Assembly: GCA_958009085.1 (NCBI GenBank)
Contig: OY253668.1
Span: 868,001-932,000, forward strand
Source of the DNA: Protoeuglena noctilucae
Taxonomy: Eukaryota
DNA: 64,000 bases
Reading direction: 5' to 3'
The position numbers and the translations under genes were made by a program. Of the stretch, positions 1 to 46,849 are shown piece by piece (within the stretch, counting starts at the first letter, position 1; each line of letters opens with the position of its first letter). The notes under the pieces are model-generated. The model saw only the letters and a list, made by a program, of their open reading frames with translations, was not told where the DNA came from and ran no database searches.

Positions 1-2402
1 TCCCTATCGCCTGGCGCGGCAGAACCATCGCGGCCACGGCCTGGGGCAGCGACTGCGGCCCTCACCATGCTGATGCACGTGACGGGTCCCTCGTGCTCCG
101 CCTCCAGCACAAAGTCCGTGAAGTCCATGAGCCACAGGCGGAGGAGGTGGTCGGAGGAGCCCGTGGCGCACACGCCGTCGACCACGGCCAGGGACGTGAC
201 GGGGCCGCCGTGGAGGAGCATGATGCTCTCCACCCGCATCCGCGCCAGGTTGATCTGCACCAGGTGGCCGCTGCACGAAACGGGGGACACGTGCGTTGGA
301 CGGGAATCAGCCGCAGACATCACACACGTGGGGAGCCATTCTGCGCACTTGGCGGCCCACGCATGCGGGCCCTGGCCGCTCGCCTGGCCGCCGCCACGTA
401 CGCGTACTTGGCGTCCGTCTTGAGGCTCGTGAGGTTCACGTCGAAATCCAGGTCGGTGAACTCGTTGCCGCGGAGGACGGCGAGGGCCCCGGGGTCCTCC
501 TCCAGCCCGTCCTCGAGGCGGATGCTGCAGTGCCGGATGCTGCCGTGGCGCACACGGTGCGTGCGCACGCCGCGGCTCCCGCACGACACCAGGGTGAGGG
601 CCTCGAAGGGGCTGAACTTGATCGCCGCCACGGGGTGGTCGAGGAACCCCTTGGCCTCGAGGCTGCGAGCAAGGCACCCGAGGGCTGCCTTGCTGTGCCC
701 AAGGTCTGATACATCCCACATGCCATGCCATGGACCCTGCCGATCCCCTCCCTCCGCCCCGCATCTCCGGCAGCGAGTCCATCACCTGGCCGCGGCCGAC
801 TCGGGCGCCCCAAACAGCCCCTCCAGCTTCCACACCGCCAGCACGTGACGCCCCTGGGCGTTGAGACCCACCGCGGCCACGTGGCACGCGTCCGGGCTCA
901 CGTGCAGGCACGACAGGCCCCCCGCGTGCTCCTGCAGCACCGCGAGGCACGTGCCGCGCCGGTAGTCCCACACACGCACCTGGGTGCCGGGCCCCTCCTC
1001 CGCCGTGGCCATCACTGCGAGGGGAGGTATTCGCACCGCATGCGGCCCTTGCACGCCCCAGCAGCGCCTCGTCGGGAGCTGCAAGCCAGCCGCCCCAGCG
1101 GCGCCTCACCCCGGCCGCAGCTGCTGAAGCTGATGGTGCTGACGGCGGCCGCGTGGCCCCGGAAGAGCCTCCGGGGGGGGTCGGCCCTCTCCTCGTCACT
1201 CCCGCTCAGGTCCAGGGCCAGCACCAGCGACTGGCAGGCGATCACCAGCTCCAGCTTGCCGGGCACAAAGCACATGGTGCGGGGCTGGTCGGACGCATAC
1301 CCCACGAGCTTGTGCTGCGGAGCGTTCACGAGGGGGTCGAGGTCAGTGGCTGCCTGCCGGCGGCTCTGCAAGCATTTCGCGCCGCGCCTCGCCGTGCTTC
1401 CGCACCGTTGCGAAGCGTCCCTCGGCGGGCGCCCTGTCCGGCGGGGGCCCGCTCTCGAGCCGCGACTCTGCCGCCGTCCGGGCGGGCTTGACGAGCCGGA
1501 GGGTGCGCAGGCGCGCCCCGTCGCTGCGGGCCCGGCCGTGGGCAGCGACCCGGACCTGGCCGGGCGAGGTGGGATGGGCCGCGTCGCCCGCTTCGTCCCC
1601 GACGTGCTTCTTCGCCGGCGTTGCGAGCGTCTCCTGCAATCGTGGGGGTTGGGTGGGGCGTGACCGTTCGTCGCCCTGGCTGGGCGCCCGCACCGCTGCC
1701 GTGCCCGGCTCGCCCCCTCGCCTCGACGCTGAGGGGTGCGTGGGGCACCCAGACGGTGCGCACTGCCGCAACGACGTCCGGGCGATGGGAGAGGACCATG
1801 TCCTGGGGCAGGGCCGCAAACGAGTAGCGGTACGGCGACGTGAAGCAGTTGCGGACCACGAGCGACGCGCAGAGCTGGATGCTCCGGAGGGCCCGAAACT
1901 GCACGCCCGCCTGCTCCTGCATCAGCGCCTCGAGGTCCACGCACAGCACGTGCCACCCGGACGCCTCGGGGCGCACAGGGACGCGCACCGAGAGGTCCCC
2001 CGCCGAGGGCCCCGGCGCCTCCTCGGGGCTCCTCGGGGCCTTGATCAGGGAGCCGAGCGACACGCGCACGGGGCGCCCCGCGCGCCCGTCGTTGTCGACC
2101 TCCAGGTTGACGAGGAAGGGCCGGTCCACGTCCACGCGGACTTGGAGGTAGAGGAACCGACCGGTGAGGCCCGCGTTACCTCCCCGGCCCTTGGGAATCA
2201 TGACGTACGCGGACGTGGGCACGGCGCCATTCACCGCGAGCACCCGCTTGGCGATGAGGTCGTCGACAACCACCCGCACGTCCCCTCGCAGCGTGGCCCC
2301 TGCGCCGGATTCCACCTTGAACGCGCGGAACACGTTCACAAAGGGGCTCTGGTTGTCCACCTGCGAGGAATAAACGCAAAGGGCCTTGCTTACGCCGCCC
2401 AT
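1..2402 (-). CDS. WDR90: WD repeat protein 90 (POC16)-like centriolar protein: N-terminal CFAP20-like domain followed by WD40 repeats; spliced, runs off the left edge
   Basis: Exon reads QSPFVNVFRAF...LTGRFLYLQV...RPFLVNLEV...WHVLCVDL...LRSIQLCASLVVRNCFTS (CFA20-type domain). WD40 pieces follow (RLFRGHAAAVSTISFS, QVRVWDYRRGTCLAVLQEH, VAAIKFSPFEALTLVSCG). The start codon is uncertain. Confidence 0.8.
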
Positions 2403-3045
2403 CCACGAAAGGCGGGCTGCGGGGGGCGGTGAGGGCTACGCACCCGGGGCTGGAAGCGCCTCCCTGTCGCCCAGACGGCCTTCCCCGCGCCGGGACGGGG
2501 GGATGCCCCGGTCAAAGGCTCGTCCTCCGTCACGACCATCGCGCAGCCGCTCTCGGGCTCCAGGCCGCGGGCCAGCTGACGGAAGGGCAGGTGCCCAGAC
2601 GCCCAGCGCCGCCCCGAAAGTGCCGAAACGCGGGCACAGCCTGATACTGGCGTTCAAGCCCTAACGCGACGAAACCACTGCCCGTGGCAGAGAACGCGCC
2701 CGCGCCGGCGACTCCCGCCAAAACACTTCAAACGGCGGACGTGTGAGCCATGACGGAACAGCCTCCACACGTCAGCTGCGGGCGTGGGTACCGTTTGCAC
2801 GCGGATGGGACCCAGATGCCATCGCGGCAACGTGTGAGCGCGGCCTGGTCGTCTGAGAAACGTCAGATGCGTTTCCAGTGACCGCGTTGCCTTCTCCCCG
2901 TGCTTGCCAATTCGCAGCCATCGGCAACACGTGGCATATCCACAGGCCTCTACGCCGTGTGAAGGACGAGACACAGCCACAGTTGCAACTCCACTCGCCG
3001 GCGCCGTGGACGGAGGCAATCGCACCGTTCTTCCCGCCGCCGCCA

Positions 3046-5445
3046 TGTCGGGGACGGAGGAAGTCCCTGCCGCGGCAGCTGCTGCGGAGCAGGGCCCGAG
3101 CGAGCACGAGGTGAGCGCAGGCCATGTTTTATTGAAATTCAAACCTGCTTCGCGGCCCGGCCTGCGCTCCTGACGGCGTCCTCGCTCCCGCGAGACCAAT
3201 GGGTCCAATGCAGATTGACGAGCTGTACAAGAAGGGCGTCGCTTGCTTGCAAGGCGACGCAGCCGAGGAGGCAGTCAGCGTGTTCGGTGCTGTGCTCGAG
3301 GCGCGCGTCAAGGCGAGGCGGCCGGCGCGCCCGTCACGTGCAGTGAAGCGAGTATCCATTCCGCGTATCGCCGACCTCTCGGCGGGCGCCGCGCGCAGAT
3401 GTACGGGGATTTGGACCCGCGCACGGCCACCGCGTACTTCCAGTACGGCTCGTCGCTCCTCTTCAACGCCCAAGACACCTCCGACATGCTCGGTGGCCTC
3501 GTGAAGGATGCAGCCATCGCCAGGGCCAAGTCCCTCGTCGGGGCATCGCTGGAGCAAGCCGCGGGAGGTACGTGGTTGGGCCGGGCGAGCGTGCCGCCGC
3601 TCTTGACCGTCTCTTGTTATGCAATGACATCCGCGGATTCCCCTCCTGCATTGCAGGCAGCGCCGCCGGAGAGGACGGGGCTGGGCCTTCCGGGGTCGGC
3701 GCAGAAGCGGCAGAGGTTGGAAGCGTCGTTGTTTTGAACCCCAGGGGGCGCCGTCAGCTTGTCCAACCGCGTCGCGCAAGCTGGTGCCTCCCGCTCTTCG
3801 CAGGAGGAGGGTGGGGCGGCAGGGGAGGCCGACGAGACTGGCGCGGGTGCGTCCGGCCAGGCAGATGAGGGCGAGGGCGAGGGCGAGGGCGAGGGCGAGG
3901 GCGAGGGCGAGGGCGAGGGCGAGGGCGAGGGCGAGGGCGAGGGCGAGGGCGAGGGCGAGGGCGAGGGCGAGGGCGAGGAGGAGGAGGGGGGTGAGGGGGA
4001 GGAGGGCGAGGGAGATGAGGGGGAGGGAGATGAGGGGGAGTCAGAGGAGGGAGAGGGCGGCGAGGATGGCTCTGGGGATGGGTCGATGGAGGGGGCGGAG
4101 GGGGACCTGGATTTGGCGTGGAAGATGCTGGAGGTCGCCCGTGTCATTGCCGAGAAGGACCGGCCAGAGATGCTGGATCTCCTCATTGACACGCGCATGA
4201 GGCGAGGCCGGGGCGGCAAACGGCTTTTTGGTGTGCCGCGTAGCTGGGCGGCTGACATGCCATTGCACGCCCGGTGCTTGCAGGCTCGCGGAGGTGCAGA
4301 TCGAGCGGGAAGACTTGGATCTTTGCACGGAGGACCTGGAGCAGGCCATGGCGCTGCTGAAGGAGGAGCGCCCCCACGACCACAGCCGGGCCTTCAAGGT
4401 CCTGTCGCTCCTCGGCCTCGTCATGCAGGCGAGGCGCTGGTGCTGGGGCCCATGCCGCGGCAGGGGTGGGCCTTCCTCAATCTCGAACCGAGCTGTCCCT
4501 GGGTGTCTGAGTCTGCAGATGAAAGGCGATCTTCCGGGCGCCATCCGCCACATGTCCAGCGGCCTGGAGACTTGCCAGTCGCGCCTGGCTACCGTGCGCG
4601 CCGAGCTAGCGGCCGCCGGCGAGGGGGGCGCCGAGGTGAACCGGAAGGGGACATGGTTGTGACAGCGAGCAGTCCGCCAGCTCACGAATTGAGCAAGCAC
4701 CAAAACAATCTCCCTCCCCTCCCGACGCTCAGCAGGGCAAACTTGCGCGCGAGCTGCCGCACCTCGAGCAGACGGTCAAGGACCTGGAGGAGCGGCTGCA
4801 AGAGCTCAAGGTGACACCAATGTGCAGGCTGGGCGCGAGAGCCAAGGCATGGCGTTCCCCCCGCTGCCGATGAGCGGCCCAGGAATGCTTCTTCTTCCGC
4901 ACGACAGGATGCTGTGGTGGCCAAGGAGGTGGTGGCCGCGCAGGGTGGCTGGGAAGCCAAGATGCGGGCCGCGATGGCAGGGGGTGACGCCGAGCAGAGC
5001 CCCTTTGTGGGCGAGGCGGCCAAGCCGTGCGCACCGGTGACGAACTTGGGAGTTATCCGGAGCTCCAAGCGCGCCGCGGACGCCAACAACGCGGTGAGCG
5101 GCAGCGGACCTGATGGCGTGTCCTGGCCGCGTTGATGGCGATCAGCAGTCATTCAATCCGGGATTCCGTGATCTCAGGACGCGGAGGAGACGGGCGAGGG
5201 GAAGAAAAAGGCGCGCATCGAGCCTGTGGCGCTAAGCAAGGCGAGGAATCAGGGCGCACGCTGCCGATGCTGTGCAAGCTCGCCGCTGCGCTAATTCAGC
5301 GGGGCGTGATTCCCTCCGGCCGCAGAACGTCGTAGATGGCGAGAAGGAGAACCAGGAGCGGCCGATGGTCGTCCCCTCCTTCCTAGCTGCGTTCGGCCGG
5401 CCCGGCGACGCCGAGGCGCCCAGCACTGGGGAAGGGCGCGATTGA
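3046..5445 (+). CDS. NASP: NASP/Sim3/Hif1-like histone chaperone (SHNi-TPR) with acidic insertion; multi-exon
   Basis: Spliced TPR motifs (YGDLDPRTATAYFQYGSSLLFNAQ; GDLDLAWKMLEVARVI; LAEVQIEREDLDLCTEDLEQAMALL) are interrupted by a long E/G/D tract. The C-terminus has PVTNLGVI and a basic KKKARIEP. The last exon ends in TGA at 5443-5445. Confidence 0.85.
3867..3974 (+). repeat. Perfect hexanucleotide microsatellite (GAGGGC)18 encoding (Glu-Gly)18 inside NASP
   Basis: Counted directly in the sequence; followed by a degenerate GAG/GGG-rich acidic tract. Confidence 0.95.
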
Positions 5446-5742
5446 GACTCTCGTCTCGAGCCTCGCTGGCTTTGTGGCAGCCATTCTGTTCAGGGCAGGG
5501 ACCTGGGGACCGCGGGAGGCGCGCGGCCGGTAGGAGTGCTCCTGCAACAGCTTTCTGGCCAGAAAAGTTTGAAGGAGAGGCGCCTTCCTGCCACTGCGGA
5601 GAGAAATCGCCGTCGAGATCACGCGGGGAAGTCCAGCACTGCGTCTGTCGCTGTTTTCTTCGGTGTTTGGGCTGCTCTGGGCGATCCAGCGAGCGGTGGG
5701 GAGCGACGCCGTTCCGGTGCCCTCCTGAAGCTAGAAGCGACC

Positions 5743-7107
5743 ATGGGACCGGGGCGCGTGTGGGTGGGGGGCCTCCCGATGGACGTCCGCGAGAGCGAGG
5801 TGATTTGGGCGTCTCTCGGGTAGCGTCATCGCTATCAGAGACGGAGATGTGGCGATCGGGCAGGAGGTGGCGTCGCGAGGGCGGTCGGGCTCTCCCCGGG
5901 CCGCGGCGCGACTTTCCCGCCGCAGCCGCCCGCCTCGTCGCCCAGCGACGCGCGGGTCTTGTCAAATGCCCAGGCCGCACTCTTGGAGGGGGAGGAGGCT
6001 GAGCGCTCGGGATCCTGGCGGACGGGCCTGGCCTCGTGGGACCTGTGACATCTCCCGGCGGAGGCGGACGGGATTGCTGTCGCTAGGAGCTCCCTGGACA
6101 ATGGAATTTCCGTGTGGTGGAGGATGGGATGCCCCACCGTCGAAGCGGGCGCGTTTGCTGAGCGGTGGAGGAGGGACCGCCGTGAGCTCCCGCGAGCCTC
6201 AGGGGGATCACTCGCTTGCCAGCGGCATGTGCTGGCCGGCCAGAACGCTTGGGTGCGCTGACGGGGTCCGCCTCGCCCTCCCCTGCCCCGCAGCTGGAGG
6301 ACTTCTTCCACAAGTACGGGCGCATCACGGAGATCACCATCCGCAACCGCAAGCCCCCGGCGTTCGCGTACGTGGAGTTTGCGGATCCGAGGGACGCTGA
6401 TGACGCCGTGCGCGGCCGGAACGGGGTCGACTTCGGGGGCGGGTTCCCCGTCAAGTGCGACATCGCCAAAGAGGAGCGCCGCGGCTTCGGCCCGGGCCCG
6501 TACGGGGGCCCGCCCATGGGGGGTCGGTCGGCGTTCCCGCCGTCGCGGAAAACCCGCTACAAGGTCATCGTGGAGGGCCTGCCCGAGTCGGCCTCGTGGC
6601 AGGACCTGAAGGACCACATGCGCGAGGCGGGCGACGTGACGTACGTCCAGGTGTACCGCGACGACAAGGGCACGTACGGCCTCGTCGACTACGCCACGCT
6701 CGACGACATGGAGCGGGCCATCCGCAAGATTGATGACACCAAGGTGAGATTTCAGTGGAGGGGCGGCGGCTTCTCGAGCCGGCGCCCACTGAACCGCTGC
6801 CAGGGATTCACGTGGTCCCGCACCCCCTCACTCCCTGCAGTTCAAGAACCCGTACGACTCGTCCTACATCACGGTGCGGGCGTACGAGGACCCCGCGGAG
6901 GCCCGCCAGGACCGGCCTCGCCGGCGGTCGCGGTCGCGGTCGCCGTCTCGCTCGCGCGCGGACCGCGGCCGCTCTCGCTCGCCCAGGGACCGGTCGCCCC
7001 GTGCCCGCTCGCCCCGGAACCGCTCGCCGAGGGACCCCTCGCCCCGGGACCGCTCGCCGCGGGAGAGGAGCCCGTCCCCGCGCCCCGCCAGCCCCGCGAG
7101 GGATTAG
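5743..7107 (+). CDS. SR splicing factor of the SRSF1/SR30-34 type (RRM + pseudo-RRM + RS domain)
   Basis: RNP2 RVWVGGLP, RNP1 PAFAYVEF, the diagnostic SWQDLKD motif of RRM2 and an RS/SP-repeat tail. Introns at 5800-6293 and 6744-6840. Confidence 0.93.
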
Positions 7108-7323
7108 GCTGGCGTGGGTAGCGCTTGGTTAGCGCTGTCAGCCAGGGGGACTGGCGTTGGCACTGTTTGAATCCAGCAGTGCAGCAGTCAGAACGGCAGG
7201 ATCAGCGCATAAATCCTCAGAGGGTCCAAAGAACGCGACCTGCGTATCATATCTCGAGGGTTGTCCGTTGGCGATTCATGACGCACTCGCACTAACCTGG
7301 GCAGCTCGAGTGAGGCAGCCGCG

Positions 7324-8183
7324 ATGTCGTTGGGACGCGCTTTGCGCGGTTGGCGGCGCTACTTTGTTCAAGCGTCGTGTTCGAGTAGCTCAGGGGCCTT
7401 CTGCGCGAGGTCTGGGCTGGAGGGGGCCGGTTGTGCGTCTGGGACGTGGCACCGGGAAGAGCCTTCGTTTTGTTCGGGGAGGGCGGCGAGGGGAGGCTGG
7501 GGTGCATTCTACAGCTCTCCACGCTTGCTATCCATCGACGCGGATGCCCAGGAATCGCGCAGGACGCCGCAGAGTGTGCTGAACCTCAGCGACGCAGCCA
7601 TCGCGCGCCTCCGCGAGCTTCAAAAGGCGCGAGGCGCGCAGCGCGCGTGTCGTCCTGGATGCGAGGCTGATGCGGCTGCCGTGGCCGCGACGGATTTCCA
7701 CCCTGCGCGCCTTTCCTGCAGGGCTCGGACGAGGTGCTGCGCATTTCTGTCGAAGCCGGGGGGTGCAGCGGTTTCCAATATCACTTCACGTGGGTTGCGT
7801 CGTCCAAGTGAGGCATCGATCCGACGGTGTAGCATGGCGAGTACCGCGGGGAACCTTGCTGGAAAGAAGGAACCTTGCTCCCCTCCCAGGGAGCTGGACC
7901 CTTCAGACATGCGCATGGAGCAGGACGGGGCCAAGGTCGCCGTAGACGCGGTGTCGATGGAGTTTCTTCGCGGGGCGACGGTGGACTTCCAGGTGCCACC
8001 CTGTGCTCACTGCCCGTGCTTGTTTGCGTGCACTTGTTGCCTGGTGGAGTGCCACTAGGTCGCATGACCTCAACCCCACCCCCGCAGGACGACCTCATGC
8101 GTTCTGCCTTCGTCATCACGGCAAATCCACACGCCCAGAGCGCATGCGGCTGCGGGTCTTCGTTTGTGGCCAAGGACGCATGA
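7324..8183 (+). CDS. A-type iron-sulfur cluster assembly protein (IscA/HesB family, ISCA2-like), probably mitochondrial
   Basis: Spliced product contains LRISVEAGGCSGFQY, VAVDAVSMEFLRGATVDF and a terminal CGCGSSF. The N-terminus is R/S-rich like a targeting peptide. Confidence 0.92.
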
Positions 8184-20443: not shown

Positions 20444-20896
20444 CGCCACGCCCCCCACCCTACACAAATGGAGACAAGGCCCGCCGACTCCAGCGGCGGC
20501 TTGGCCCTGCACAAAAAGGTCTTTATATCAACATAAAGCTGGCGTTCAGGCGGCGTCGGCAATGCCCTCGGCGAGCGGCGCAGCCACGCGGCCAGCTCCC
20601 GCGGCTTTCCCCTTCCAACGCTAAGCTGCGCGGCGCTGCAGATGGGCGCGGGCAGTTCATCACAAAGGGGCACTGTGCATCACGGGACGCGGCGCTGAAG
20701 CGCCAGTGATGCGCCAGTGTTGGATCGTTATCTGACTTGCCGCGCCGCAGCTTCGCCATCTCACCATCTTGCAGACTTTCGCGGCCCGAGAGTGCCATTC
20801 AAAAAGGGCATCAAACAACTACGGCTGCGCGCGGCTGGGCTGCAGCGTGCAAACGGCCGCCGGTCTGGCGGCCATCTCAAAGAGCAACAAGGGGCC

Positions 20897-23800
20897 TCAA
20901 GGCCGCAAAATCCTCGTGACAGTCTTGCTGCTAGTCCCCGGCTCCGTCTGGCCGTGCAGCGCGACGACCGCCCCGCCCGTGAAGAGCCCCCTGTCCCGGG
21001 CGAACTGGACGGCCCGGCCCAGGAGGGCGTCGATGTTGCTGATGTCCCCCAGGTCGTCCACCAGGAGCGCGTACTGCCCGAACGACAGGTTGACTTGCCG
21101 GCTGAGGACGGCGTTGTTGGTGACGATGATGCAGGGCACGCGGGGGCGGTACTTGGACACGAGGCGGGCCGCCTCGCCGTGCTCGTCCACCACCACGGCC
21201 AGGGAGGCGTGCACGTCGACCGTGGCCTCTGCGATGGTGGTCGCGGCCGACTCGAGCGTGCTGAGCGGCCGGGACGTGAAGTCCTCGATGAAGATGCCCA
21301 TGGCGTAGTAGTTGCACGCCCCCTCCGTGTTGCGCACGATGGCCGCCGCCGTCTCCACCACCTCGACGGGGAAGTCGCCCACGGCCGTCTCACTGGCGAG
21401 GAGGATGGAGTCGGCGCCGTCCACAACACAGTTGGCCACGTCCGTCATCTCGGCCCGCGTCGGCCGCGGGTTGCTCGCCATCGAGTGGAGCAACTGCCGC
21501 GCGATCGTCACGGGCTTGCCCGCGACGTTCGCCTTGGTCGTCAGCACCTTGGAGGCGAGCAGCACCTTCTCGGGCGTCACTTCCAGCCCCAGCGCACCGC
21601 GCGCCACGACGATACCGTCCGCCGCAGCCAGGATCTCGTCGATGTGCTTGATGCCGTCGACCGACTCGATCTTGGCGATGACGCGCGCCGAGTCGCACCC
21701 GATCTCGGCCAGCGTCTCGCGCACGTCCTCGATGACGCGTGCCGACCCCACGCGTGACACCTCCACGAAGTCGGGCTGCACGTCGCGCACGAACGTCACG
21801 TCGGAGCTCTCCTTGAAGTTGAAGTACCCCGACTGCGCGATGCGGCCGAGGACGCCGAAGGCCTTCTTGGAGCCCAGCTTGGCCGTGTTGATGGCCTTGC
21901 ACTGGTACTCGGCGTCCGACAGGCGCGCCACCACGCGGAAGGCGATGATGCCGTCGCTGATCATGAGCACGTCGCCCTTGTCGAAGGTCGGCGCGAGCTG
22001 CCACCACGCCACCCCGACGCGCGCGTCCTTGCCGTCGGACCACCCCGTGAAGAGCTCGGGCGCCCGCTGCACCTCGTCGTGCGAGCGGAAGTAGACCGTC
22101 ACGTCCTGGTCGGCCTTGATGTCGATCTTCTTGGCGGGCGAGCCGTCGGCGTTGACCACGTCGCACGTGTACATGCTCGGCGCCGTCAGCGACACGGTCA
22201 GGGGCACCGGGCGCCCCGCGCGCCGCGACGCCTCGGCCAGGGCCGCAGCCAGCTGCCGATTGTCGTCGTGCGACCCGTGCGACAGGTTGATGCGGGCCAC
22301 GTCCATCCCCGCATCGATGGCCCGCTGCAGCACCTCCGGCGTCCGCATGGCCGGCCCCAGGGTCACCACCAGCTTGGTCTTGCGTGCCGGCGCGTCCGGC
22401 TTAATGAGCATGTCCAGGTCGATGTTGACGGCGCGCAACGAGAGCGTCTTGGACACGATCTGCTTGTCCGTGTACTTGGCCGGCTGCGCCACGCCGAGCT
22501 CGTTGAAGTTGAGCCGGCCCGGCGCCATCGTGATGTAGAGCTGCCGCTCTGGGTTGACCTCCGTGTCGGCCGCCGCCTTGTCGAAGCCCAGGACGAGCGT
22601 CGACGTGATGACGATGACCTCCTTGCCCGAGACGCACAGCTTGTCGCGGACGGCCATGTTCATGGCCAGCCACACCTGCTGCTGCACCTCCTTGGCGTTC
22701 TTGGGCAGCGCCGCAATCACGTACGGGTAGACGCCGTAGAGCGTCTGGCACCGGCGCGCCAGGCCCGGGTCCGTGGTCAGCACCATGACCGGGACCGAGG
22801 GGCGGTACTTGGCCAGCATGGACGGCATCTTGCCGGCCTCCGAGAAGACCACGATGAGGCCCGGAACGATCTCCGTCGCCGTCTTGACCGCGCACGACGC
22901 CACGGCCTCCACCGTCCCCACCGGCTTGGCCGTGTACTCGTGGATGAACTCCCAGTTCTGGTAGTGGTTGATGCCGATCTCGGCGGACGTCACGATGCGG
23001 CTCATGACGGCCACGGTGGCGTCCGGGAAGTCGCCATTGGCCGTCTCACCCGACAGCATGACGGCGTCGACGCCGTCGAAGACCGCAGACGCCACGTCCG
23101 TCATCTCGGCGCGCGTCGGGAAGGGGTTGCTGATCATCGACTCGAGCATCTGGGTCGCGCAGATGACGAACTTGCCCGCGATGTTGGCCTTGGTAATCAT
23201 CCACTTCTGCGCCAGGGGGACCTTCTCCACCGGGATCTCCATGCCCAGGTCGCCCCGCGCCACCATAATGCCGTCCGTCTCGGCCAGGATGTCGTCGTAG
23301 TTGCGCAGTCCCTCGAAGTTCTCGATCTTGGAGATGATCTTGATCTTGTGCCCCCCCGCCTCGTCCAGCACGCGCCGGATGAAGCGCACGTCCTCGGCCG
23401 ACTGCACGAACGACGCGGCCACGTAGTCCATCTTGTGCTTGCACGCGAAGTTCTGCAGGTCGTCGATGTCCTTGTCCATCAGCACCGGCAGGTCGACCTT
23501 GACCCCCGGCAGGTTGCAGTTCTTGCGCTGCCCCAGCTCCTTCGTGTTGAGCACGCGCCCCCGGAGCTCCGTCTCGCTCAGGATCTCCACCACCTCGATC
23601 GACACCGTCCCGTCCGCCAGCAGGATCTTGTTCCCCGGCTTGACCGACTGGCACAGCTTGCTGTACGACAGCCCAATGCGCGTCTCCTTGTCCGTCTTGT
23701 ACCCCTCGAACTGCGTGTACCGGTCGCCCACCGCCTCCACCACGATGTCCTGCCCCGCCTCCAGCGTGATGTTCTTGCCCTCGCGCAGCATGGCCGTGCG

Positions 23801-26800
23801 GATCTCCGGCCCCTTCGTGTCCAGCAGCGTCGCGGCGTGGCTGCCCCGGCGCATCGTGGCCTCACGGAAGCGGGCGAGGACCTGCCCGTGACCCTCGTGG
23901 TCCCCGTGGGAGAAGTTGAACCGGGCGACGTTGAGGCCGGCATCGATGAGCTTGCCGAGGTTCTCGCTCGACCAGCACGCGGGGCCGAGCGTGCAGATGA
24001 TCTTGGTCTTGCGGCGGACGAAGGCGAACTTGTTGATGTCCAGGAGCGTGTCGAGGCCGATCTTGGTGGAGCGGTAGAACATGGTGCGCGGGCCGGGGTA
24101 GGCGGACGTGGTGAGCTTGTCCACCACGCCGCCGGGGTGGCCCACCACGATGCAGCGCATGGTGAGGCGCTGGTCCTCGACGCGCTGCTGCCCCGGGCGG
24201 CGGTGGACGACGACGACCTGGTCGCCCTCCTGGAGGGACAGCAGGCCCATGTTGTTGCAATACTGGACGAGGAGGGGCAGGGCGTCGTTGATGCGCTGGA
24301 AGCGCTGCCCGGGCAGGAAGAGGCCGCACTGCCCGAAGCGGGAGCGGCACGACGCCGCCAGGGTCGGGTTGTCCGTCATGACGAAGACGGGCTGCCGGGG
24401 GCGGTACTCGGATACGAGGCCGGCGGCGCGCCCGGACGAGGTGAGGACGAGGATGGCGCGGGCCTTGATGTCGATGGCCGTCTGCACGGCCGAGTTGCAG
24501 ATGGACTCGGCGTCCGACATGGGCTTGGGGGTGCGGTTGCGGATGAACTTGAAGAGCCGCTGCGTCTCCACCAGCTGCTCCGCGTTCTGCATGATGGCCG
24601 CCATCGTCGACACCGCCGCGTCCGGGAAGTCGCCGTTCGCCGTCTCGCCCGACAGCATGACGGCGTCCACCCCGTCCAGCACGGCGTTGGCCACGTCGGT
24701 CATCTCGGCGCGCGTGGGCCGGGGGTTGCCGATCATCGACTCGAGCATCTGGGTCGCGCAGACGACGAACTTGCCCACCAGCTGGCACTTGGTGATCATC
24801 CACTTCTGCGCCAGAGGGACCTTCTCGGGCGAGATCTCCATGCCCAGGTCGCCCCGCGCCACCATGATGCCGTCCGTCTCACGAAGGATGTCATCAAAGT
24901 TCTGCGACGGCGACGGGTGCGATGCGCTCGTCAGCACAGGATCGCAGATGCCGCTGAAGACAGCCTTACCGCCGACAGCACTTCCGCGCCACGCATCGGC
25001 GGGCACGCACCTTGAGGCCCTCCGAGTTCTCGATCTTGGAGATAATGCGGATTTGCTCTCCGCCAGCCTCGTCCAGCACGCGCCGGATGAAGCGCACGTC
25101 CTCGGCCGACTGCACGAACGACGCGGCCACGTAGTCCATCTTGTGCTTGCACGCGAAGTTCTGCAGGTCGTCGATGTCCTTGTCCATCAGCACCGGCAGG
25201 TCGACCTTGACCCCCGGCAGGTTGCAGTTCTTGCGCTGCCCCAGCTCCTTCGTGTTGAGCACGCGCCCCCGGAGCTCCGTCTCGCTCAGGATCTCCACCA
25301 CCTCGATCGACACCGTCCCGTCCGCCAGCAGGATCTTGTTCCCCGGCTTGACCGACTGGCACAGCTTGCTGTACGACAGCCCAATGCGCGTCTCCTTGTC
25401 CGTCTTGTACCCCTCGAACTGCGTGTACCGGTCGCCCACCGCCTCCACCACGATGTCCTGCCCCGCCTCCAGCGTGATGTTCTTGCCCTCGCGCAGCATG
25501 GCCGTGCGGATCTCCGGCCCCTTCGTGTCCAGCAGCGTCGCCCAGGACGGCTTGCACGGCAGCAGCTTGGAGTCCTTGAGCTTCTGTGCCTTGCGCTCGC
25601 TGGCGTTGCGGAAGCGCTCCAGCACCTTGAGGTGCCCGTCGTGGTCCCCGTGGGAGAAGTTGAAGCGCACGATGTCGAGGCCGGCGTCGAGTAACTTCTC
25701 GATCTTGTCCTCGTCCCACGACGCGGGGCCGATGGTGCAGACGATCTTGGTCGCCCGAGGGCGGTGCACGGGCTTGTTGATCAGGTCGAGGTTCGTGCGC
25801 GTCGACCGCAGGGACACGGTGCCCGGGCGAATCACCTGCACGCAGCCACACGGGCACGAGGGGCTCGGCGCTGGCGACGGGGCTGCAACGCGGGGGCGGC
25901 GCTCATATGGGGCCAGGCCCTCGGCAAGGAAGGAACCCACAGCGGCAGCCCTCACCGCTGGTGCGCCGGAGGACATGGTGAGGCGGGCGGCCGACGCCAG
26001 GGCGTTCTGGAGCTTGCCCACTCCGACGACCGTGGTTGACACGACCGGGTCCTCCTCGGCCCACAGCTGGCCGTGCCCCGTCACGACGATCGCCTTGACG
26101 ATGCCCGGCTTGAGGTTGTACATCTTCTGCACGTGCGCCACGGCAGCCTGCGCACGGCGAGACCGGCACCGTCACGCTCGAGGAGTCCGGGGCGCGTGGA
26201 CGTCCCCCTCTACCGCCCTGGAAGTGTCCCTGGCGCCCCCCGCCCTTGCGCCTTACGCTTGCGAGCCCTCACCTCAGCGAGGCCCTCCGCATCGGGGCGG
26301 TCCCACATGAGAGGGAACTGGGCAAAGCAGCCCGAGGTCTGGCGGAAGACGATGTCGCTGTTGGTGGCCACGACGACGGGGCACGGGGGGCGGTACTTGG
26401 ACACCAGCGCGGAGGCGTGGCCGGTGCTCGAGGCCACCACGATGACGGCGCTGAGGGGGCTGGCGGCGTCCGTCATAGCCGCCGTGTCCATGAAGTCGAT
26501 GGCCGTGTTCGAGACGGTAGAGAGCAGGGCTTCCGCCTGCAGGAAGTGGGTGGGCAGCAAGGGCGACCTTCAGGCCCAGGGGCGACCCGCTCGCCTGCCA
26601 GGCCGCGCAGGTGAGAGCCTGCGCCCACTCTCTCCGCCCGCGCGCCGCACCTCAGGCATGGCAAGGGTCCCGCCGAGCGTGTTCCAGAAGCGGAGGAAGC
26701 TGTATTGCTGCTGGACGTCCACGCCGACCTCGGCGTCGCGGACGATGCCGGCCATGGTGGCCACCGCGATGGCGGGGAACTCCCCGTTCGCCGTCTCGCC

Positions 26801-28630
26801 GGAGAGCATGACGGCGTCGACACCATCGTACACAGCGTTGGCCACGTCGGTCATCTCGGCGCGCGTGGGCCGGGGGTTGCCGATCATCGACTCGAGCATC
26901 TGAGTCGCGCAGATTACGAACTTGCCCGCGATGTTGCTCTTGGTGATGATCTGCTTCTGCGCGATGGGCACTTTCTCGGAAGGAATCTCCATGCCCATGT
27001 CACCGCGCGCCACCATGACGCCGTCCGTCTCGGCCAGGATGCCGTCAAAGTTCTGCAACACAAGGTGGGGGCCACTTCACACGCCAGCCACCCTGACAGC
27101 GACGCGGCACCGGCAGCGAGCACAACTCGGGCCACGCACCTTCAGTCCCTCGAAGTTCTCGATCTTGGAGATGATCTTGATCTTGTGCCCCCCCGCCTCG
27201 TCCAGCACGCGCCGGATGAAGCGCACGTCCTCGGCCGACTGCACGAACGACGCGGCCACGTAGTCCATCTTGTGCTTGCACGCGAAGTTCTGCAGGTCGT
27301 CGATGTCCTTGTCCATCAGCACCGGCAGGTCGACCTTGACCCCCGGCAGGTTGCAATTCTTGCGCTGCCCCAGCTCCTTCGTGTTGAGCACGCGCCCCCG
27401 GAGCTCCGTCTCGCTCAGGATCTCCACCACCTCGATCGACACCGTCCCGTCCGCCAGCAGGATCTTGTTCCCCGGCTTGACCGACTGGCACAGCTTGCTG
27501 TACGACAGCCCAATGCGCGTCTCCTTGTCCGTCTTGTACCCCTCGAACTGCGTGTACCGGTCGCCCACCGCCTCCACCACGATGTCCTGCCCCGCCTCCA
27601 GCGTGATGTTCTTGCCCTCGCGCAGCATGGCCGTGCGGATCTCCGGCCCCTTCGTGTCCAGCAGCGTCGCGGCGGACCACCCCCGCTCCTGGCAGACCTT
27701 GCGGAAGCGGGCGAGGACCTGCCCGTGACCCTCGTGGTCCCCGTGGGAGAAGTTGAACCGGGCGATGTTGAGGCCCGCATCCAGGAGCTGCGCCAGCTTG
27801 TCCTCGCTCCAGCAAGCCGGGCCCATCGTGCAGACGATCTTCGTCTTGCGGAAAGTCACGTTCTCGTTCATAATCATGTCGAGATCCACGTACGTGTTGC
27901 GCTCCGTGATGGTGTCATTGGACACGTGGGGCGGCTTGAAGGCCGGCGGCTCGTACTCGGGAGACCACTCATTGGCCAGGCGCTCCTTGAGCACGGTGAT
28001 GGTCGCCGCCTCGATGCTGACGCGGTGCTGCGCACATCGCGAGAAGGCAAGGTCGGGGCCCTCGCGCCGGCGGAGGAGCGGGGAATCAGGCCTCCCAGGG
28101 GTCCCGCTCACCAGGCGCGCAATGTCCCTCAGGGCGGCAGGCGCCGCAGCTCGCTCCGCATCGTCCGCCTCCAGCCCGTCCATGACGGCGGGCTCGTCGG
28201 CAACAGGGACACTGCGGCGGGCCCATGGCAGGGTGCTGTCGGCCCGGCCCGGCACCAACCCAGCCCCCTCCGACGCCCCCTCCCCTCCAGGCACTCACTC
28301 GTCCATCTTGTTCTTCAGGATGCTCCTCTTCGGCGCCAGCGCCTCCTTCCCCGACCGGCTTGCGCGCGATGGCTCGTGCGACCTCTCCCCCCTCTGCGCA
28401 GGGCACACGAGGGAGCTCGTGACGCGGTGAGCAGGATCGCTAAAGCAAGCGAACGCGACTGTCGAGGGGAGTATCGCGGGGGGAGGATCACAGCAGCTGC
28501 TGGGCAGCAGCAGGGCCCAAGGGGGTGGCCGACGCGGACAGCGGCCGCTCCTCTCCGCCCCGCCGGGGAGACCAGGATCAAAATCGCAAAAACCACGCTG
28601 ACGCCATCCCGAGAGCGGCATCGCCGCCAT
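20897..28630 (-). CDS. Pyruvate kinase polyprotein with four tandem PK units (roughly 2,200 aa); 5' end uncertain
   Basis: The unit TKI(V/I)CT.GP...ARFNFSHG...[10 protein letters not shown]...ISKIEN...MVARGD.G.E...ATQMLESM...VMLSGETA plus C-domain occurs three times, then a fourth divergent unit. Introns at about 28212-28297, 28029-28112, 27054-27140, 26538-26650, 26148-26274, 25836-25955 and 24903-25011 keep the frame open. Confidence 0.9.
23358..27670. repeat. Three nearly identical 476-bp dispersed direct repeats within the PK gene (23358-23833, 25066-25541, 27195-27670)
   Basis: Direct comparison shows the same sequence from GCCTCGTCCAGCACG to CAGCAGCGTCGC. The only difference I found is the A/G at 27356 (synonymous Asn codon). 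Confidence 0.92.
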
Positions 28631-29551: not shown

Positions 29552-31641
29552 ATGGAGGCGTTGTGTGTCTCCCGCGGCGTCGCGGCGGCCATCTCGTCGA
29601 AGCGCAGCGTGGCTTGCCGTGCGCCCCTGACCAGAAGGCGAGGCCTCGCTCCGCCTGCCGCGCTCGGCAGCCGCATGGCCTTCTTTGCGACGGCGTCGCG
29701 CTCCCAGCGGGGCGCACGACACGCTGGGGAGGGCCCTCGGGAGCTGTGCGGGTCGTTCCTGCCTTGTGCACGCGTCGCGAGCCTTTGCGGAACTATCCTT
29801 TGCATGACGATGTGGGCATTCTGCGAAGTCGACCGTGGGGCTGTCTGCCTGGGCCAGTCGCGCCAAACCGATCCGAACAGACAGTTCCCCCGATTTCCGC
29901 GGTCGAGCGGTCGGGGCGCCGTACGAGCGCCTGCTGCAGTCGAGTTCGGTCTCGTGCGCGTTGTTGTCGCTGCGGACCGGCCGCGCAGCCCCCGTGTTGT
30001 CAGATTTCACCCGGAATACCTTGCAGCCCCTGGCCCCGCGTCCCGCGCCCTTGCCGAGGGGGACGGCGCCGCCTTCCTGTCGCGATGAAGGCCAGATATC
30101 TACTGATGGCGAGTTTGCCCACTAGCGTGTGCGGAGCGCGTCGGAACACGCCCTGCCTCTCTTGGCCCGCGCAGTCCTGCGGCAGGCCGCGCGCGCGCGT
30201 CCTGTGCCCTGCACCGGTGCAATGTGAGGTGTGACGCGGAGGACGGCGCATCCTCTCTCTCCACGTCGTCGGGCGACAAGACGGAGTTTGTTGCCGAGAC
30301 GCTGCTGCCGACGCGGGCGGGGAAGTTCCGCGTCCGGGCGTACAAGCACACGGTGAGCACATGTCCCGGAGCTGGAATCGCCCTCGTCTGACCGCCGCGC
30401 CCTGTCGTGTCGGCCGGCGCACGCCCCCGATGACGCGCATGTGCTCGTGGGTCGTCCCGGTGCGATCCCCTCGACCGGGGCGTGCATCGGGTCGTCCGCG
30501 AGAACGTGACGGCGCTCGTGCATCGACGTCTGGATCCGCGCCCCGCGCCCGTGCTCGAGACCCTTCTCGGGGCTGCGTTGACCGCGCGCGCTTGCTTGGT
30601 GACCTCGTGCACATCGGTTCCTGCGCGCCTCGCGTGCCGCCGTCCCCTGTTCTGTCGGTTCTGGCCGCGGGCGGCATCGCGTCTTCGCGGCGTCGACCGG
30701 GCGCGCGCGCGTGGCTCGCCACCCGGCATCTGCCGGGGCTGGCCCCCCCGCGCGGCCTGTTCCCCCGGACGGGCGTCCTGCTGCCCCCCGCGCTGCGGAG
30801 AACGGAGTGTCCACATGTTTCGGTGGCCTTGGCTCGGGAGTACCCCCCGAAGGCCGCGGTTCACGTTGATGGCCCCCGCAGGTGGACGGCTTGACGTACA
30901 ACGAGCCCGTCGCCATCATCCACGGAAACATCGAGGGGAAGTCGGCCGTACCAGTGCGGGTGCACGACGCCTGCTTCACGTCCGAGGTGCGCACGGCCAG
31001 GCCTCGCGCGTGTGGCGAGCCTCACGAGCGGCCAGCAGGGAGCCGCGACGCGAGACCTCCGCCTGCCTCGCCGCGCAGGTTCTCGGGTCGATGAAGTGCG
31101 ATTGCGCCGAGCAACTGCAGCAGGCGCTGGAGTACATCAAGCGGTCGCCGGACGGGGGCATGGTCATCTACCTTCAGCAGGAGGGTCGCGGGATCGGGCT
31201 GGCAAACAAGATTGCCGCGTACGCGCTGCAAGAGGAGGGATACGACACGGTGGACGCGAACCGTGCGCTCGGGCTGCCGGACGACTGCCGCGAGTACACG
31301 GCGGTGAAGGTGTGGCGCCTGGGGCGGCGGTTGTTGCACAACCTCCAGGGCCAGAGCTCCGGTCGCGCCAGTCGCTGTGCGGGCGACGTCCCCCCCCGCC
31401 CTCCTCGCAGAACATCATCAAGGACCTGGGCATCGCGTCGATCAAGCTGATGACGAACAACCCGCGCAAGATCCGCGTCCTGGCCTCGCTGGGCGTCCAG
31501 GTCGAGGACCGCATTGCGTGCATCGTCGAGGCCAACGAGGTCAACAAGGGGTACCTGGCTGCCAAAGAAACGCGCATGGAGCACCTGCTCGACCGCTCGT
31601 GGGACGAGACGTACCGCAACGCCGTCCCCGGGCCAGAGTGA
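29552..31641 (+). CDS. RIBA: GTP cyclohydrolase II (monofunctional RibA type) with probable plastid transit peptide
   Basis: [92 protein letters not shown]. The arrangement of the 5' exons is tentative. Confidence 0.92.
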
Positions 31642-43300: not shown

Positions 43301-46300
43301 GCGTTGCCGGGACATCGAGCTGGTGCAGCATCGCCTCTATGGCCTCACGTGCTTCCACGTCCACCGCACGCACCCAGGCAATGTCCCCGACTCCTGCAGT
43401 GGGCTCCCTTCCAGGGGCAAACGTGTGCATCAACAGCTCCTCGGTTGCTGCACGGGACACTGTGCGATGCATCTCCTCCCTCGCGCCTCCAAGCGAGGAC
43501 TTGACGGCCTTGAGATACGCCTCCCGGTCCATCAAACCCAAAATTTTCTGCGAGATACCCAAGAACTTCCAGAGTAAAAGAGTAAGAGACGCGTGGTACA
43601 CGCGCTAGCTGATGCACTGCCTAAGGCGCACTTGCAGCACGCTTCACCTCGCCCGCGTGGCCCAGGACGCCCTTCACCAGGGAAGTAATTGCGAGAGCTG
43701 ATAGAAGCGCTGGGTTGCCCCCGAGCAGGATGTCCGTGCCCCGGCCAGCCATGTTCGTGGCGATAGTGACGGAGCCCGGCCGCCCAGCCTGCGCCACCAC
43801 TGAGGCCTCCACGGCAGCGAGCTCGGGGCGCGCGTTGAGCACCTTGTGATCAATGCCACGCTGGAGCAACACATGGCTGAGAGCCTCGCTCTGCTCTATC
43901 GAGCCTGTGCCGATCTGCAGAAAGGGGAGCGCGGCTGGCATAGCTCAGCCAACGGCCAACAATACACCGTGCGGGGCGGCAAGCAGCCGGCGCCCCACCA
44001 GGATGGGCCGGCGCGCATGGTTCGCGTCTCCCTCGCCCACGTCCTCCTCCCACACGCGCCAAATCAAATCGGCCTGCAGAGAAAACATGCCCCTCGTGCC
44101 CCGTCGCTTCAATCACCTACCGGTCCCCTCCAGCTGCCATCTCCTCAAGCACTTACCACAAACATGTTGCGCGCATCCTGATTGACGAACCAAAAGGGCG
44201 TGAGGTCCCCGCGCCTGCTCTGCTTGTTCGGGGGCACCGCCACCACGGGGAGGCGGTAGACGTCCCAGAACTCCTCTTGCTCCGTCATCGCTGTCCCTGT
44301 CATGCCCGCCAGGCGATCGTAATATCGGAAGAGCGTCTGGTAGGTGCACGTCGCGATCGTGGCGTACTCGGCCTGGCGATCGAGACCCTCCACCGCCTGC
44401 AAGCGGCGCCAGCCGTCGAATCGTCCGTCTCGTATCAGCCAAACATGAAAACATAGTCACGCTGGCAATAAGTCGCATGTTTCTTCCAGGAACGCACCTC
44501 GATTGCCGTGTGCAGACTCTGGCGTAGCCGCGTCTGTTCCTGGCGCCGACCTGTCAGCTGGTCCACCAGCACCACCTTCCCGTCCATCACCGTGTAGTCC
44601 ACGTCTGCGGTTCGCCACGGTGGCCAGGAAGATTGCGAGCGAATGCATCAGGGTCAGATCCTCACCCCCGGATGAACAGCCTCTGCTCTGCGGCAAGCAT
44701 GGCTGGAGATCCCACCTCGACGGTAGGCGTGGAGGGCAGTGAGCACTGCCACGATGTAGGGCCCGAGAATAACGTCAGAGGCCTCTGGGGTGTCGATGCC
44801 CTCCCAAATCTTGACCCCGAGCTCACGCTCGCACGCAAGCGTCCCCATCTCCGTCAGACTGTGGGTAGGGAAGGCTAACCATCGAAGTTCAGAAGTGAGG
44901 GGCACATCGGCTCCGTCCCTCCATGCCATCCCTCACAGCTCGGCCTGCCTCGCACCATGCGGACTTGAACAGCTCCTCCACGACAAAGTGCAGGCCGGGC
45001 TGCAGCTCTCGCGCGGCACGTAAAGCCATGTCGAACGCCGCGTTGTTGGGCACCGGGGATCTGCACGCAATATTCGCCGGTGGTGTCGGGCCGTTGAACA
45101 CAGGACGCTGCGGGCCGGCTCATACGGGGCTAGTGGCGCATTTGCCCAGCGCCGCACCTGGGGCTGCTGATGATGAGTGGCTGGGAAGCAAGATCGATGA
45201 GCACCGAGTCCACCTCGTCGATGATGGCGAAGTGGGGACTTCGCGAGTTGACGTTGCCAAAGCGATTGACGGCGATGCGGGATCGCAGGAAGTCAAAGGC
45301 AAGGCCTTGCGCTGCGACCAGGCAGGACGGATCGGTCTCGCGAAACACAAGGCAAGGGAACGGCGAGCTGGCGAACGCTGGGTTCCGACCCCGACCGACC
45401 TGTGGCGTAAACGACGTCTCGCCCGTACACCTCCTGCTTCTCCGCGCTGGTCATGCTCTCCGTGACACACCCGACCGTCAGTCCGAGAAACTTGAATATC
45501 TTGCCCATCGTGTGAGCGTCTCGCTCCGCCAGGTACTCGTTCACTGCAGCCGCGGACATGGGCCCCGTCAGTGCCGGTGCCGCGGCCGGCAGCCATGGGC
45601 CCTGGGCCCGGCGAGGGTGCGCGCCACCCACCCGTGACGACATGCACACCGCGGCCTGACAGGGCGTTGAGATAGGCAGGACAGGTCGCCAACAGGGTTT
45701 TGCCCTCCCCCGTGCCCATCTCGACCACCAAGCCCCGGTGGAGTGCGACCCCGCCGGCGAGCTGCACGCGATAATGGGACATGCCAAGAATCCTGCGAGA
45801 CACCTGCGACGGACAAGGACAAAGAGGGGCCCTCTTCCTTGGGGCTGACGCAGGCAAATGGCGCGCATTTAGAGCCATGTACGCAGTGGCTGGCACGAGG
45901 CTAAGGCACGTGCTTGGCCGACTGCGGGCGAGCAACACATCATTCGCAACATGTCCGTCACCTCTCGCACCACCGCAAACGCCTCCACGAGGACCCGGTC
46001 GAGCTCCCATCCGTCCCGGAGGCGCTGCCGAAACATGTCCGTTTTCGCGCGAAGCTCCGCGTCGCTCAGCACCTGCACCTGCTGCTCCAGCTCCAGCACA
46101 TCGTCTGCCGTCGCAAGGCACTCGCGGATGGTCCTCTCGTACTCCTGCAGGTTGGGGAGGCTCAGACACTGAGCAGGTCCAGGCCCGCAAAAGCGCATCT
46201 GGACGCGCGGCATCCCGCGGCGTACTGGCACCGCACCCGAGGCCTTTCGCAGAGTTTCCTCTTGTCCGCGATCCACTGCTCGACCCAGGGCTCTTCACGT

Positions 46301-46542
46301 TTGCGCCGCGGCCGTCCCGGATGATGTCGCGCAGAGGCGTGCAACGCCAGCGACGGTGTCCCGTCCAGCGTGGAGTCGCCAGGGACCGACGTAGCGCCAC
46401 GACGGGCGCAATGGCCCGCGCGCCACCTCCACGACCCTGCCGGCCTCGGCGCACGTTCCAGCAGCCGGCAGCCGGGCCGATGGGCGGGGCCGATGCCAGC
46501 ACGATGTGGCCATTGAGGAGCCCAGACTCGCGCTGCGGACAT
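40374..46542 (-). CDS. SECA: Plastid preprotein translocase ATPase SecA, divergent and long (SECA2-like); multi-exon
   Basis: [92 protein letters not shown] and [13 protein letters not shown], followed by a long non-SecA C-terminal exon (40374-41831). Assignment to the SECA2 paralogue is an inference. Confidence 0.88.
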
Positions 46543-46849
46543 GGCTGTGGGGAAACAGCTGCGCGTGGCCCGAGGAGGCCTCAGAAGGCGGGGGGTGCCC
46601 GGCGCAGCGTTGCCATGCAGCGGGTGTCGACGCTTGTGCACAAGGGCAGGTACGAGAAGTCAGCGCTGATTCCGAAAGGCCTGGAGGAAGAGGCGCCTCG
46701 AAATGCCAGGAGGGCACGGCCGTCAGACAATGGGCAGCCGTGCAAGGCACCGCCTGGCTCGATTCGCACATGTACAGATCAGGTCAACGACCTGGAGGGA
46801 CCATCGCATCGCATCGCATCGCCCGATCCTAGCTACACGTCTGGGCGTC

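Follow-up and report, generated by a model that had tools for sequence, protein, structure and literature searches.

Here we describe the gene for a four-unit pyruvate kinase (PK) in a 64,000-nucleotide stretch of the Protoeuglena noctilucae genome (assembly GCA_958009085.1, contig OY253668.1, positions 868,001 to 932,000 of the forward strand), referred to below as the window, and in particular its last unit, which has probably lost catalysis and been retained as a pseudo-enzyme. A tblastn search with unit 3 as query revealed four PK units in tandem, with matches at 27913-26306, at 25826-25011 together with 24904-24332, at 24106-22478 and at 22450-21059, the last only 36% identical to unit 3. 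In the frame 25006-20897, Pfam reported three stretches each of the PK barrel and the C-terminal domain. The gaps between the tblastn pieces have GT...AG ends, which indicated a spliced eukaryotic gene, and the RNA-supported model is a minus-strand gene at 28306-20897 with 8 exons, an open joined frame and a protein of 2227 amino acids (aa). Its start codon is the first ATG compatible with the 5' joint and has no other basis. All seven intron joints are GT..AG and are present in marine metatranscriptome contigs from runs X2 and X3 of one study; none was found in run X8, whose library type is not on record. The GT...AG ends were also checked on the DNA letters, and the introns are 84-125 nt long. 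Since GT-AG introns appear as joints in RNA contigs, a reading of the locus as a bacterial operon was ruled out.

Unit 4 shares an exon and RNA contigs with unit 3. The minus-strand frame 25006-20897 is open for 1369 codons and runs from unit 2 to the stop codon, bearing out the intact frame that an earlier note, made from the letters alone, had ascribed to unit 4. The boundary between units 3 and 4 is bridged without a joint in RNA contigs from three runs of one study, for example by a contig of run X1 spanning 20818-24683. Unbroken RNA contigs and a single frame thus place unit 4 in the same message as unit 3. Position 22390 is the start of the Pfam PK barrel; with its N-terminal segment, unit 4 begins at about 22450. 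Identity is 66-67% among units 1-3 and falls to 35-36% between unit 4 and each of the three. The strong codon bias reported for unit 4 was likewise found, with a G+C content at third codon positions (GC3) of 0.964 against 0.947-0.975 in units 1-3. Coordinates are collected in Table 1.

Mapping of the active-site residues had been proposed in the earlier note as the way to check its claim. Residue numbers used here are those of human PKM2, assigned from motif spacing; the spacing matches the PKM2 active-site residues in the accessible part of PMC10943388 and the trypanosomatid numbers in that of PMC11957543. We scored 25 active-site or interface positions against a reference of 49 canonical units from 17 four-unit algal PKs, a set that leaves out P0157_u2 and P0154_u2, both of which carry replacements. 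All 25 positions were invariant in 49/49 canonical units. The window's unit 4 departs at 11 of the 25, so that its change exceeds chance: Asp113 is replaced by Ser, Thr114 by Leu, Lys115 by Thr, Glu118 by Ser, Arg120 by Tyr, Asn210 by Gly, Asp296 by Ala, Thr328 by Arg, Glu332 by His, Ser362 by Ala and Gly363 by Ser. Retained are Arg73, Asn75, Ser77, His78, Lys207, Ser243, Lys270, Glu272, Arg294, Gly295, Gln329, Arg342, Asp347 and Glu364. All of the changed and kept motifs that the note had quoted are in place; two motifs, of 13 and 12 residues, are left unchanged.

In PK, Glu272 and Asp296 are the divalent-metal ligands, Lys270 and Thr328 lie at the phosphoryl and proton transfer site, and the K+/nucleotide loop consists of Asp113-Thr114-Lys115...Arg120 with Asn75 and Ser77. 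Unit 4 lacks a complete set at each of these places. At the metal site Glu272 is present and Asp296 is Ala; at the transfer site Lys270 is present and Thr328 is Arg; and in the loop Asn75 and Ser77 are present and Asp113, Thr114, Lys115 and Arg120 are gone. These replacements predict that unit 4 no longer transfers phosphate from phosphoenolpyruvate (PEP) to ADP.

The fold of the unit appears to have been preserved through these losses. Unit 4 belongs to the PK family by its Pfam scores, with 251.6 bits for PF00224 (cut-off 30) and 58 bits for PF02887 (cut-off 28), and it also exceeds the cut-off of the NCBIfam equivalog model TIGR01064 (330.9 bits, cut-off 306.4), to which unit 3 scores 503.2. 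A dead unit that lies above the Pfam and NCBIfam thresholds cannot be flagged as such by routine annotation. The best match in the Protein Data Bank is 6du6_A (E 2.7e-76), over residues 22-508 of 519. An AlphaFold2 model of unit 4, built on a 62-row alignment, has a mean predicted local distance difference test score (pLDDT) of 93.5 and a predicted template modelling score (pTM) of 0.92, and superposes in Foldseek on PKM2 (4fxf_A) with template modelling (TM) scores of 0.87/0.90 over 518 columns. The predicted model has the three-domain PK fold of TIM barrel (A), lid (B) and alpha/beta (C) domains.

A metagenome scan provided two DNA orthologues. L001 carries a full-length four-unit gene at 940-7557, which is 73% identical to the window's gene overall and 57% in unit 4; L002 covers the end of unit 3 together with a unit 4 that is 55% identical to the window's. 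L001, the closest full-length orthologue, is intronless across its four units, against seven introns in the window's gene. Because synonymous distance (dS) is saturated, codon-position distances were used in place of the ratio of nonsynonymous to synonymous distance (dN/dS). In comparisons of unit 4 between the window and L001 or L002, the distances were 0.33-0.37 at first (p1), 0.27-0.33 at second (p2) and 0.43-0.48 at third positions (p3), and only 2-9 gap columns were required in about 495 codons across the three DNA lineages. Third positions are near saturation (p3 0.32-0.48) and have about 96% G+C. With dN of 0.30-0.41 as against 0.08-0.14 in units 1-3, unit 4 evolves about three times faster at the protein level; omega by the Nei-Gojobori method (NG86), which is biased by the 96% GC3, was 0.48-0.63 in unit 4 and 0.18-0.24 in units 1-3. 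Judged by these distances, unit 4 is under relaxed but real purifying selection and is not drifting. Neutral decay of unit 4 in relatives, the outcome that the earlier note had named as counting against its proposal, was not seen, in that p1 and p2 are below p3 and gaps are few.

A search for longer relatives returned 29 proteins, mostly of 2100-2550 aa and green-algal, from Chlamydomonas, Volvox, Gonium, Edaphochlamys, Tetradesmus, Raphidocelis, Monoraphidium, Sanguina, Ostreobium and Mesostigma. They were cut into units by profile and their motifs tabulated, which separated two families. In family A, which includes the window's gene and C. reinhardtii CHLRE_05g234700v5, the last unit is degenerate; 13 such sequences were found, in Chlorophyceae, Ulvophyceae, Pedinophyceae and Mesostigma, Chlamydomonas PYK3 among them. 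Asp296 is replaced in 12/13 of these dead units (by Ala in five, Lys in three, Asn in two, and Ser and Val in one each) and Arg stands at 328 in 12/13, while Thr114 is replaced in 11/12 and Lys115 in 12/12. The same units retain Arg73 in 12/12, Lys270 in 11/13, Glu272 in 10/13 and Gln329 in 12/13, and Arg294, Gly295, Arg342, Asp347 and Glu364 in 13/13. P0002, a close relative (51% identical), has lost Lys270 and Glu272 as well, reading N-I-S. Across 24 canonical units, 155 alignment columns show conservation of 90% or higher; the 13 sequences of the dead-unit clade keep 81 of them, switch 5 and lose 69, the lost columns belonging mainly to the K+/nucleotide loop and the lid domain. As a PK homologue that lacks catalytic residues and is conserved among species, unit 4 is a probable pseudo-enzyme.

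Family B (P0160-P0175, including C. reinhardtii XP_001695738) has a degenerate unit 2 instead of unit 4. Its dead units have lost Lys270, Glu272, Asp296 and Thr328 in 14/14 and keep Arg73, Arg294, Gln329, Arg342, Asp347 and Glu364 in 14/14, with Gly295 kept in 1/14. The dead units of both families thus have six sites in common wherever these are readable, namely Arg73, Arg294, Gln329, Arg342, Asp347 and Glu364.

In a quick IQ-TREE analysis of 70 units under a site-heterogeneous model, family-A units 1, 2 and 3 each formed their own clade across species, with 97-100 support in the Shimodaira-Hasegawa-like approximate likelihood-ratio test (SH-aLRT). The dead last units formed a single clade of 10 rows (SH-aLRT 97) that includes Ostreobium and the pedinophyte, and the window's unit 4 grouped with P0153 and P0002 (99). 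The window's gene is thus of the PYK3 type, with four tandem units, orthology rank by rank and a degenerate last unit with Arg at 328, and by this tree unit 4 is old and orthologous across green algae. The dead units of families A and B fell on one side of a branch whose support was only 33, and a tree that holds the family-B units together, implying a separate origin of the dead unit inside family B, was not rejected by the approximately unbiased (AU) test (p 0.215). The earlier note's central claim, that unit 4 is catalytically dead yet retained, is supported by its residue losses, predicted fold, RNA contigs shared with unit 3, orthologous dead units and codon-position distances.

The live units differ from the dead one in a further respect. 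A block of 483 nt (161 aa), covering the lid domain and its flanks, is the same in units 1-3 bar one synonymous base, and the sequences flanking it are only about 51-55% identical at the protein level; unit 4 has no such block. In run X8 the contig of the block has a depth of 190 against about 65 in neighbouring sequence, and a depth of about three times makes the three copies look real. Between paralogous units of most other family-A species the lid block is likewise 75-95% identical (67-73% in Ostreobium), whereas the remainder of the units reaches 49-60%. This pattern points to repeated gene conversion between live units that has bypassed the dead one.

Additionally, 21 of 154 PK units among the 150 best representatives for unit 4 are without the Lys-Glu-Asp-Thr set. 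Proteins with such units are P0003, P0008, P0010 and P0011 and about 10 of ordinary PK length among P0055-P0141, such as P0055, P0058, P0099, P0113, P0127, P0128 and P0131; multi-unit proteins with several degenerate units are among them. Dead PK homologues may thus be more widespread than the four-unit family, in a sample enriched for such matches by a query that is itself a dead unit.

Each active site of ordinary PK borders on the AA' interface and is tuned by residues from the subunit across it. PKs are homotetramers with AA' and CC' interfaces, and the accessible part of PMC11957543 lists Arg263, Gly264, Gln298, Arg311 and Asp316 as signature AA' contacts of a 'rock and lock' allosteric switch. 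In PKM2 numbering these residues of PMC11957543 are Arg294, Gly295, Gln329, Arg342 and Asp347. The residues retained in the dead units are thus AA' signature contacts, which favours a role as a structural or allosteric partner. Furthermore, a two-chain prediction of unit 3 with unit 4 gave an ipSAE of 0.72 against 0.00 for the best control. Of 78 solved complexes 51 reached this mark, as did 2 of 108 mismatched pairs. Between runs, 90% or more of the contacts agree, with a partner pLDDT of no less than 84. The predicted interface is AA' and takes in the Arg342 and Asp347 equivalents of unit 4, as seen for example in unit-3 Arg263 and Gln298 lying against unit-4 Arg334, the equivalent of Arg342.

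Taken together, it is probable in our view that unit 4 is a conserved pseudo-enzyme, full-length and well folded, that has been retained in a single-chain PK as its fourth 'subunit'. The fused units are as many as the subunits of the PK tetramer, and the chain would fold into a built-in pseudo-tetramer with three active sites. Since the AA' contacts are kept while the catalytic set is lost, unit 4 is proposed to pair through an AA'-type interface with a catalytic unit, for which the adjacent unit 3 is the probable candidate; it would complete the pseudo-tetramer and join its allosteric transitions without turning over substrate. Its losses are the metal ligand, Thr328, the K+/nucleotide loop and most of the sequence constraint on the lid (B) domain; the barrel, the C domain and Arg294, Gly295, Gln329, Arg342 and Asp347 are kept. 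Loss of activity and the allosteric role, like the partner of unit 4 and a tetramer within one chain, are inferences. A pedinophyte protein with one unit-3-type and one unit-4-type unit, maybe a partial gene model, would fit a pairing of units 3 and 4.

Several points weigh against this interpretation. The lid domain is retained and confidently folded despite the loss of its catalytic residues, and a pure scaffold would have no obvious need for a lid. Arg73, Lys270, Glu272 and Glu364 are still present in the window's unit 4, so that some ligand binding or residual chemistry is possible there. Among the relatives, the 2176-aa P0158 has four PK units, every one of them canonical, and hence the architecture does not require a dead unit; its four units cluster together in the tree (99), and it may represent an independent quadruplication or homogenised units. 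Maximum-likelihood estimates on the saturated synonymous sites gave dS of 7-55 and omega of 0.007-0.049, values at which dN/dS is unreliable. Finally, the two-chain result is to be expected from likeness to solved PK tetramers, maybe as memory of them, in a model that leaves the linkers outside and does not identify the true partner unit; as PK tetramers have been solved, it shows likeness and not binding by this copy.

The retained lid and pocket residues are also the starting point for a different role, which we regard as possible though rather unlikely, in which what was once the active site of unit 4 would now be an allosteric site, free of metal, that senses a ligand and signals across the AA' interface. 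An anionic metabolite (PEP, a sugar phosphate or phosphate) would be bound by Arg328, Arg73, Lys270, Glu272 and Glu364 under a closable lid. It is in keeping with such a site that the Thr328-to-Arg replacement is the only conserved residue switch inside the pocket (12/13), that Arg73 (12/12), Lys270 (11/13), Glu272 (10/13) and Glu364 (13/13) are retained, that the B domain persists with high pLDDT, and that the regulatory halves of eukaryotic phosphofructokinase (PFK) and hexokinase I offer a textbook parallel. On the other hand, the pocket is unevenly kept: P0002 and 14/14 family-B dead units are without Lys270 and Glu272, an argument that the pocket can be dispensed with. The new Arg could merely pair with Glu272 and fill the empty metal site, and the 69 lost columns of 155 lie mostly in loop and lid. 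A pocket rebuilt round Arg328 under a mobile lid, from which a metabolite would govern all three live sites by way of the AA' interface, is a tentative proposal that we hold to be doubtful. If true, PK would have undergone independently the same conversion of a catalytic into a regulatory site as PFK and hexokinase; the change would have become fixed before the green-algal classes separated, and would have happened again, in a different unit, in a second gene family.

Much less can be said for unit 4 as a working kinase with unusual cation or substrate needs, in which other residues compensate for Asp296, Thr328 and Arg120, or as a decaying relic or separate pseudogene that lies in frame by chance and has no function of its own. 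A working kinase would account for the presence of Lys270, Glu272, Arg73, Gln329 and Glu364 and for a score above the equivalog cut-off, and we nevertheless consider it very unlikely: the invariance of the 25 sites in 49/49 canonical units amounts to an absolute constraint where the enzyme works, the variety of residues at 296 (Ala, Ser, Asn, Lys, Val) marks a released site and not a new catalytic solution, Lys270 and Glu272 are additionally gone in relatives, and the nucleotide/K+ loop is unrecognisable. Decay could explain the roughly threefold nonsynonymous rate, and long frames arise readily by chance in DNA of 67% G+C, the window containing 34 frames of at least 330 codons. Against this, three DNA lineages with near-saturated third positions all have an intact unit 4 that aligns with 2-9 gap columns, a dead unit occurs in 13 sequences across several green-algal classes, and six sites are kept in all dead units where readable. 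A high-confidence predicted fold, codon bias as in the active units and RNA contigs shared with unit 3 also speak against decay, and we consider a relic improbable in the extreme.

The positions of the PK gene, of the motifs discussed above and of the neighbouring features are given in Table 1. The G+C content of the window is 61-72%. Four joints in contigs of run X1, at 24683|26835, 22813|26790, 24874|27157 and 24876|27157, were considered as splicing and rejected because they have no GT-AG ends. The joint 24683|26835 lies inside 68 shared letters, and the other three have only 20-21 letters on one side; these unit 2-to-unit 1 joints are most likely assembly chimeras between near-identical units and not alternative splicing. 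The window also holds other nuclear gene fragments, for GTP cyclohydrolase II, a SecA DEAD-like domain and a protein kinase domain, for which no functional link to the PK gene was seen.

Table 1. Features of the four-unit PK gene and its surroundings (window coordinates; dead-unit counts are for families A and B)
Feature	Position	Strand	Basis or remark
PK gene exons	28306-28299, 28211-28112, 28027-27140, 27052-26651, 26536-26273, 26147-25956, 25835-25011, 24901-20897	-	RNA joints
PK gene introns (seven)	28298-28212, 28111-28028, 27139-27053, 26650-26537, 26272-26148, 25955-25836, 25010-24902	-	RNA joints
Stop codon of PK gene	20897-20899	-	
PK unit 1, canonical	25956..27913	-	tblastn; three introns inside; 25/25 checked sites canonical
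PK unit 2, canonical	24080..25835	-	tblastn, motifs, RNA; one intron, 25010-24902
PK unit 3, canonical	22451..24079	-	Pfam PK 422.7 bits; TIGR01064 503.2 bits
PK unit 4, degenerate	20900..22450	-	A, B and C domains complete; aa 1711-2227 (~517 residues)
Eroded K+/nucleotide loop, unit 4	22166..22198	-	11-residue motif in place of canonical 11-residue motif; Asp113 to Ser, Thr114 to Leu, Lys115 to Thr, Arg120 to Tyr
AKIES, unit 4	21662..21676	-	Lys270 and Glu272 retained; reads N-I-S in close relative P0002
ARGALG for ARGDLG, unit 4	21587..21604	-	Mg ligand Asp296 to Ala (codon 21595-21593); Arg294 and Gly295 kept
IARQLLHSM for CATQMLESM, unit 4	21479..21505	-	Thr328 to Arg (codon 21499-21497), Glu332 to His; Gln329 kept
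12-residue motif of AA' interface helix, unit 4	21431..21466	-	Arg342 and Asp347 invariant in all dead units (13/13, 14/14)
LLASETA for MLSGETA, unit 4	21383..21403	-	Ser362 to Ala, Gly363 to Ser; Glu364 kept
483-nt block (161 aa; lid domain and flanks), unit 1	27670-27188	-	not in unit 4
483-nt block, unit 2	25541-25059	-	
483-nt block, unit 3	23833-23351	-	
GTP cyclohydrolase II fragment	30434-31447	+	
SecA DEAD-like fragment	45123-46580	-	
Protein kinase fragment	52061-53386	+	

PK is the textbook homotetramer and a model for allostery. If unit 4 is indeed a dead fourth subunit, a single-chain PK with three live sites and one conserved dead site would be a natural asymmetric tetramer, from which one could learn how far a subunit, by its interface alone, affects catalysis and regulation in the one next to it. 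There is also a consequence for annotation and metabolic modelling of green algae, in which PKs of 2100-2550 aa are read as four catalytic domains. Chlamydomonas, an established laboratory model alga, carries the orthologue PYK3.

Among known proteins the nearest counterparts are C. reinhardtii PYK3 (Cre05.g234700 / CHLRE_05g234700v5, 2306 aa) and its orthologues in Volvox, Sanguina, Ostreobium and Mesostigma, which likewise have four tandem units, orthologous rank by rank to those of the window. The last unit of PYK3 is degenerate in the same manner, with ARGKLG, ISRQ and MLCSET and an 11-residue motif kept, and shares only about 40% identity with its counterpart in the window. At 296, Chlamydomonas and Volvox have Lys, and the window's lineage Ala, Ser or Asn; Asp113 and Arg120 are both present in the former two and lost in the latter. 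PYK3 has been detected as a protein, being listed in the cilia methylome table in the accessible part of PMC11244166, and is named among heat-tolerance screen genes in that of bioRxiv 10.1101/2022.07.13.499508. The accessible portions of PMC11244166 and bioRxiv 10.1101/2022.07.13.499508 contain no mention of its four-unit architecture or its dead unit, and our literature searches, which did not cover comments on gene-annotation pages, brought up no publication on four-unit algal PKs or on a dead PK unit.

Family B (C. reinhardtii XP_001695738, Gonium, Tetradesmus, Raphidocelis) also has four fused units of which one is degenerate, but here the dead unit is the second, Lys270 and Glu272 are lost, and Ala or Gly, not Arg, stands at 328. 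Canonical PK, such as human PKM2 and trypanosomatid PYK, has the same A, B and C domains and the same AA' residues as the window's PK; it is built from four separate identical catalytic subunits, whereas the window's PK is one chain in which one unit is without the catalytic set.

Beyond PK, mammalian hexokinase I and eukaryotic ATP-phosphofructokinase are duplicated and fused, with one half regulatory, and plant PPi-phosphofructokinase has a non-catalytic alpha subunit. As in these textbook cases, a glycolytic kinase has been duplicated and one copy, probably non-catalytic, would have been kept for regulation or assembly; the textbook enzymes differ from the window's PK in belonging to other enzyme families, in having two units and not four, and in that their regulatory role is biochemically proven. 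The dead unit inside a fused four-unit PK would thus be a new case of a known pattern, in which an enzyme is duplicated and one of the copies is non-catalytic.

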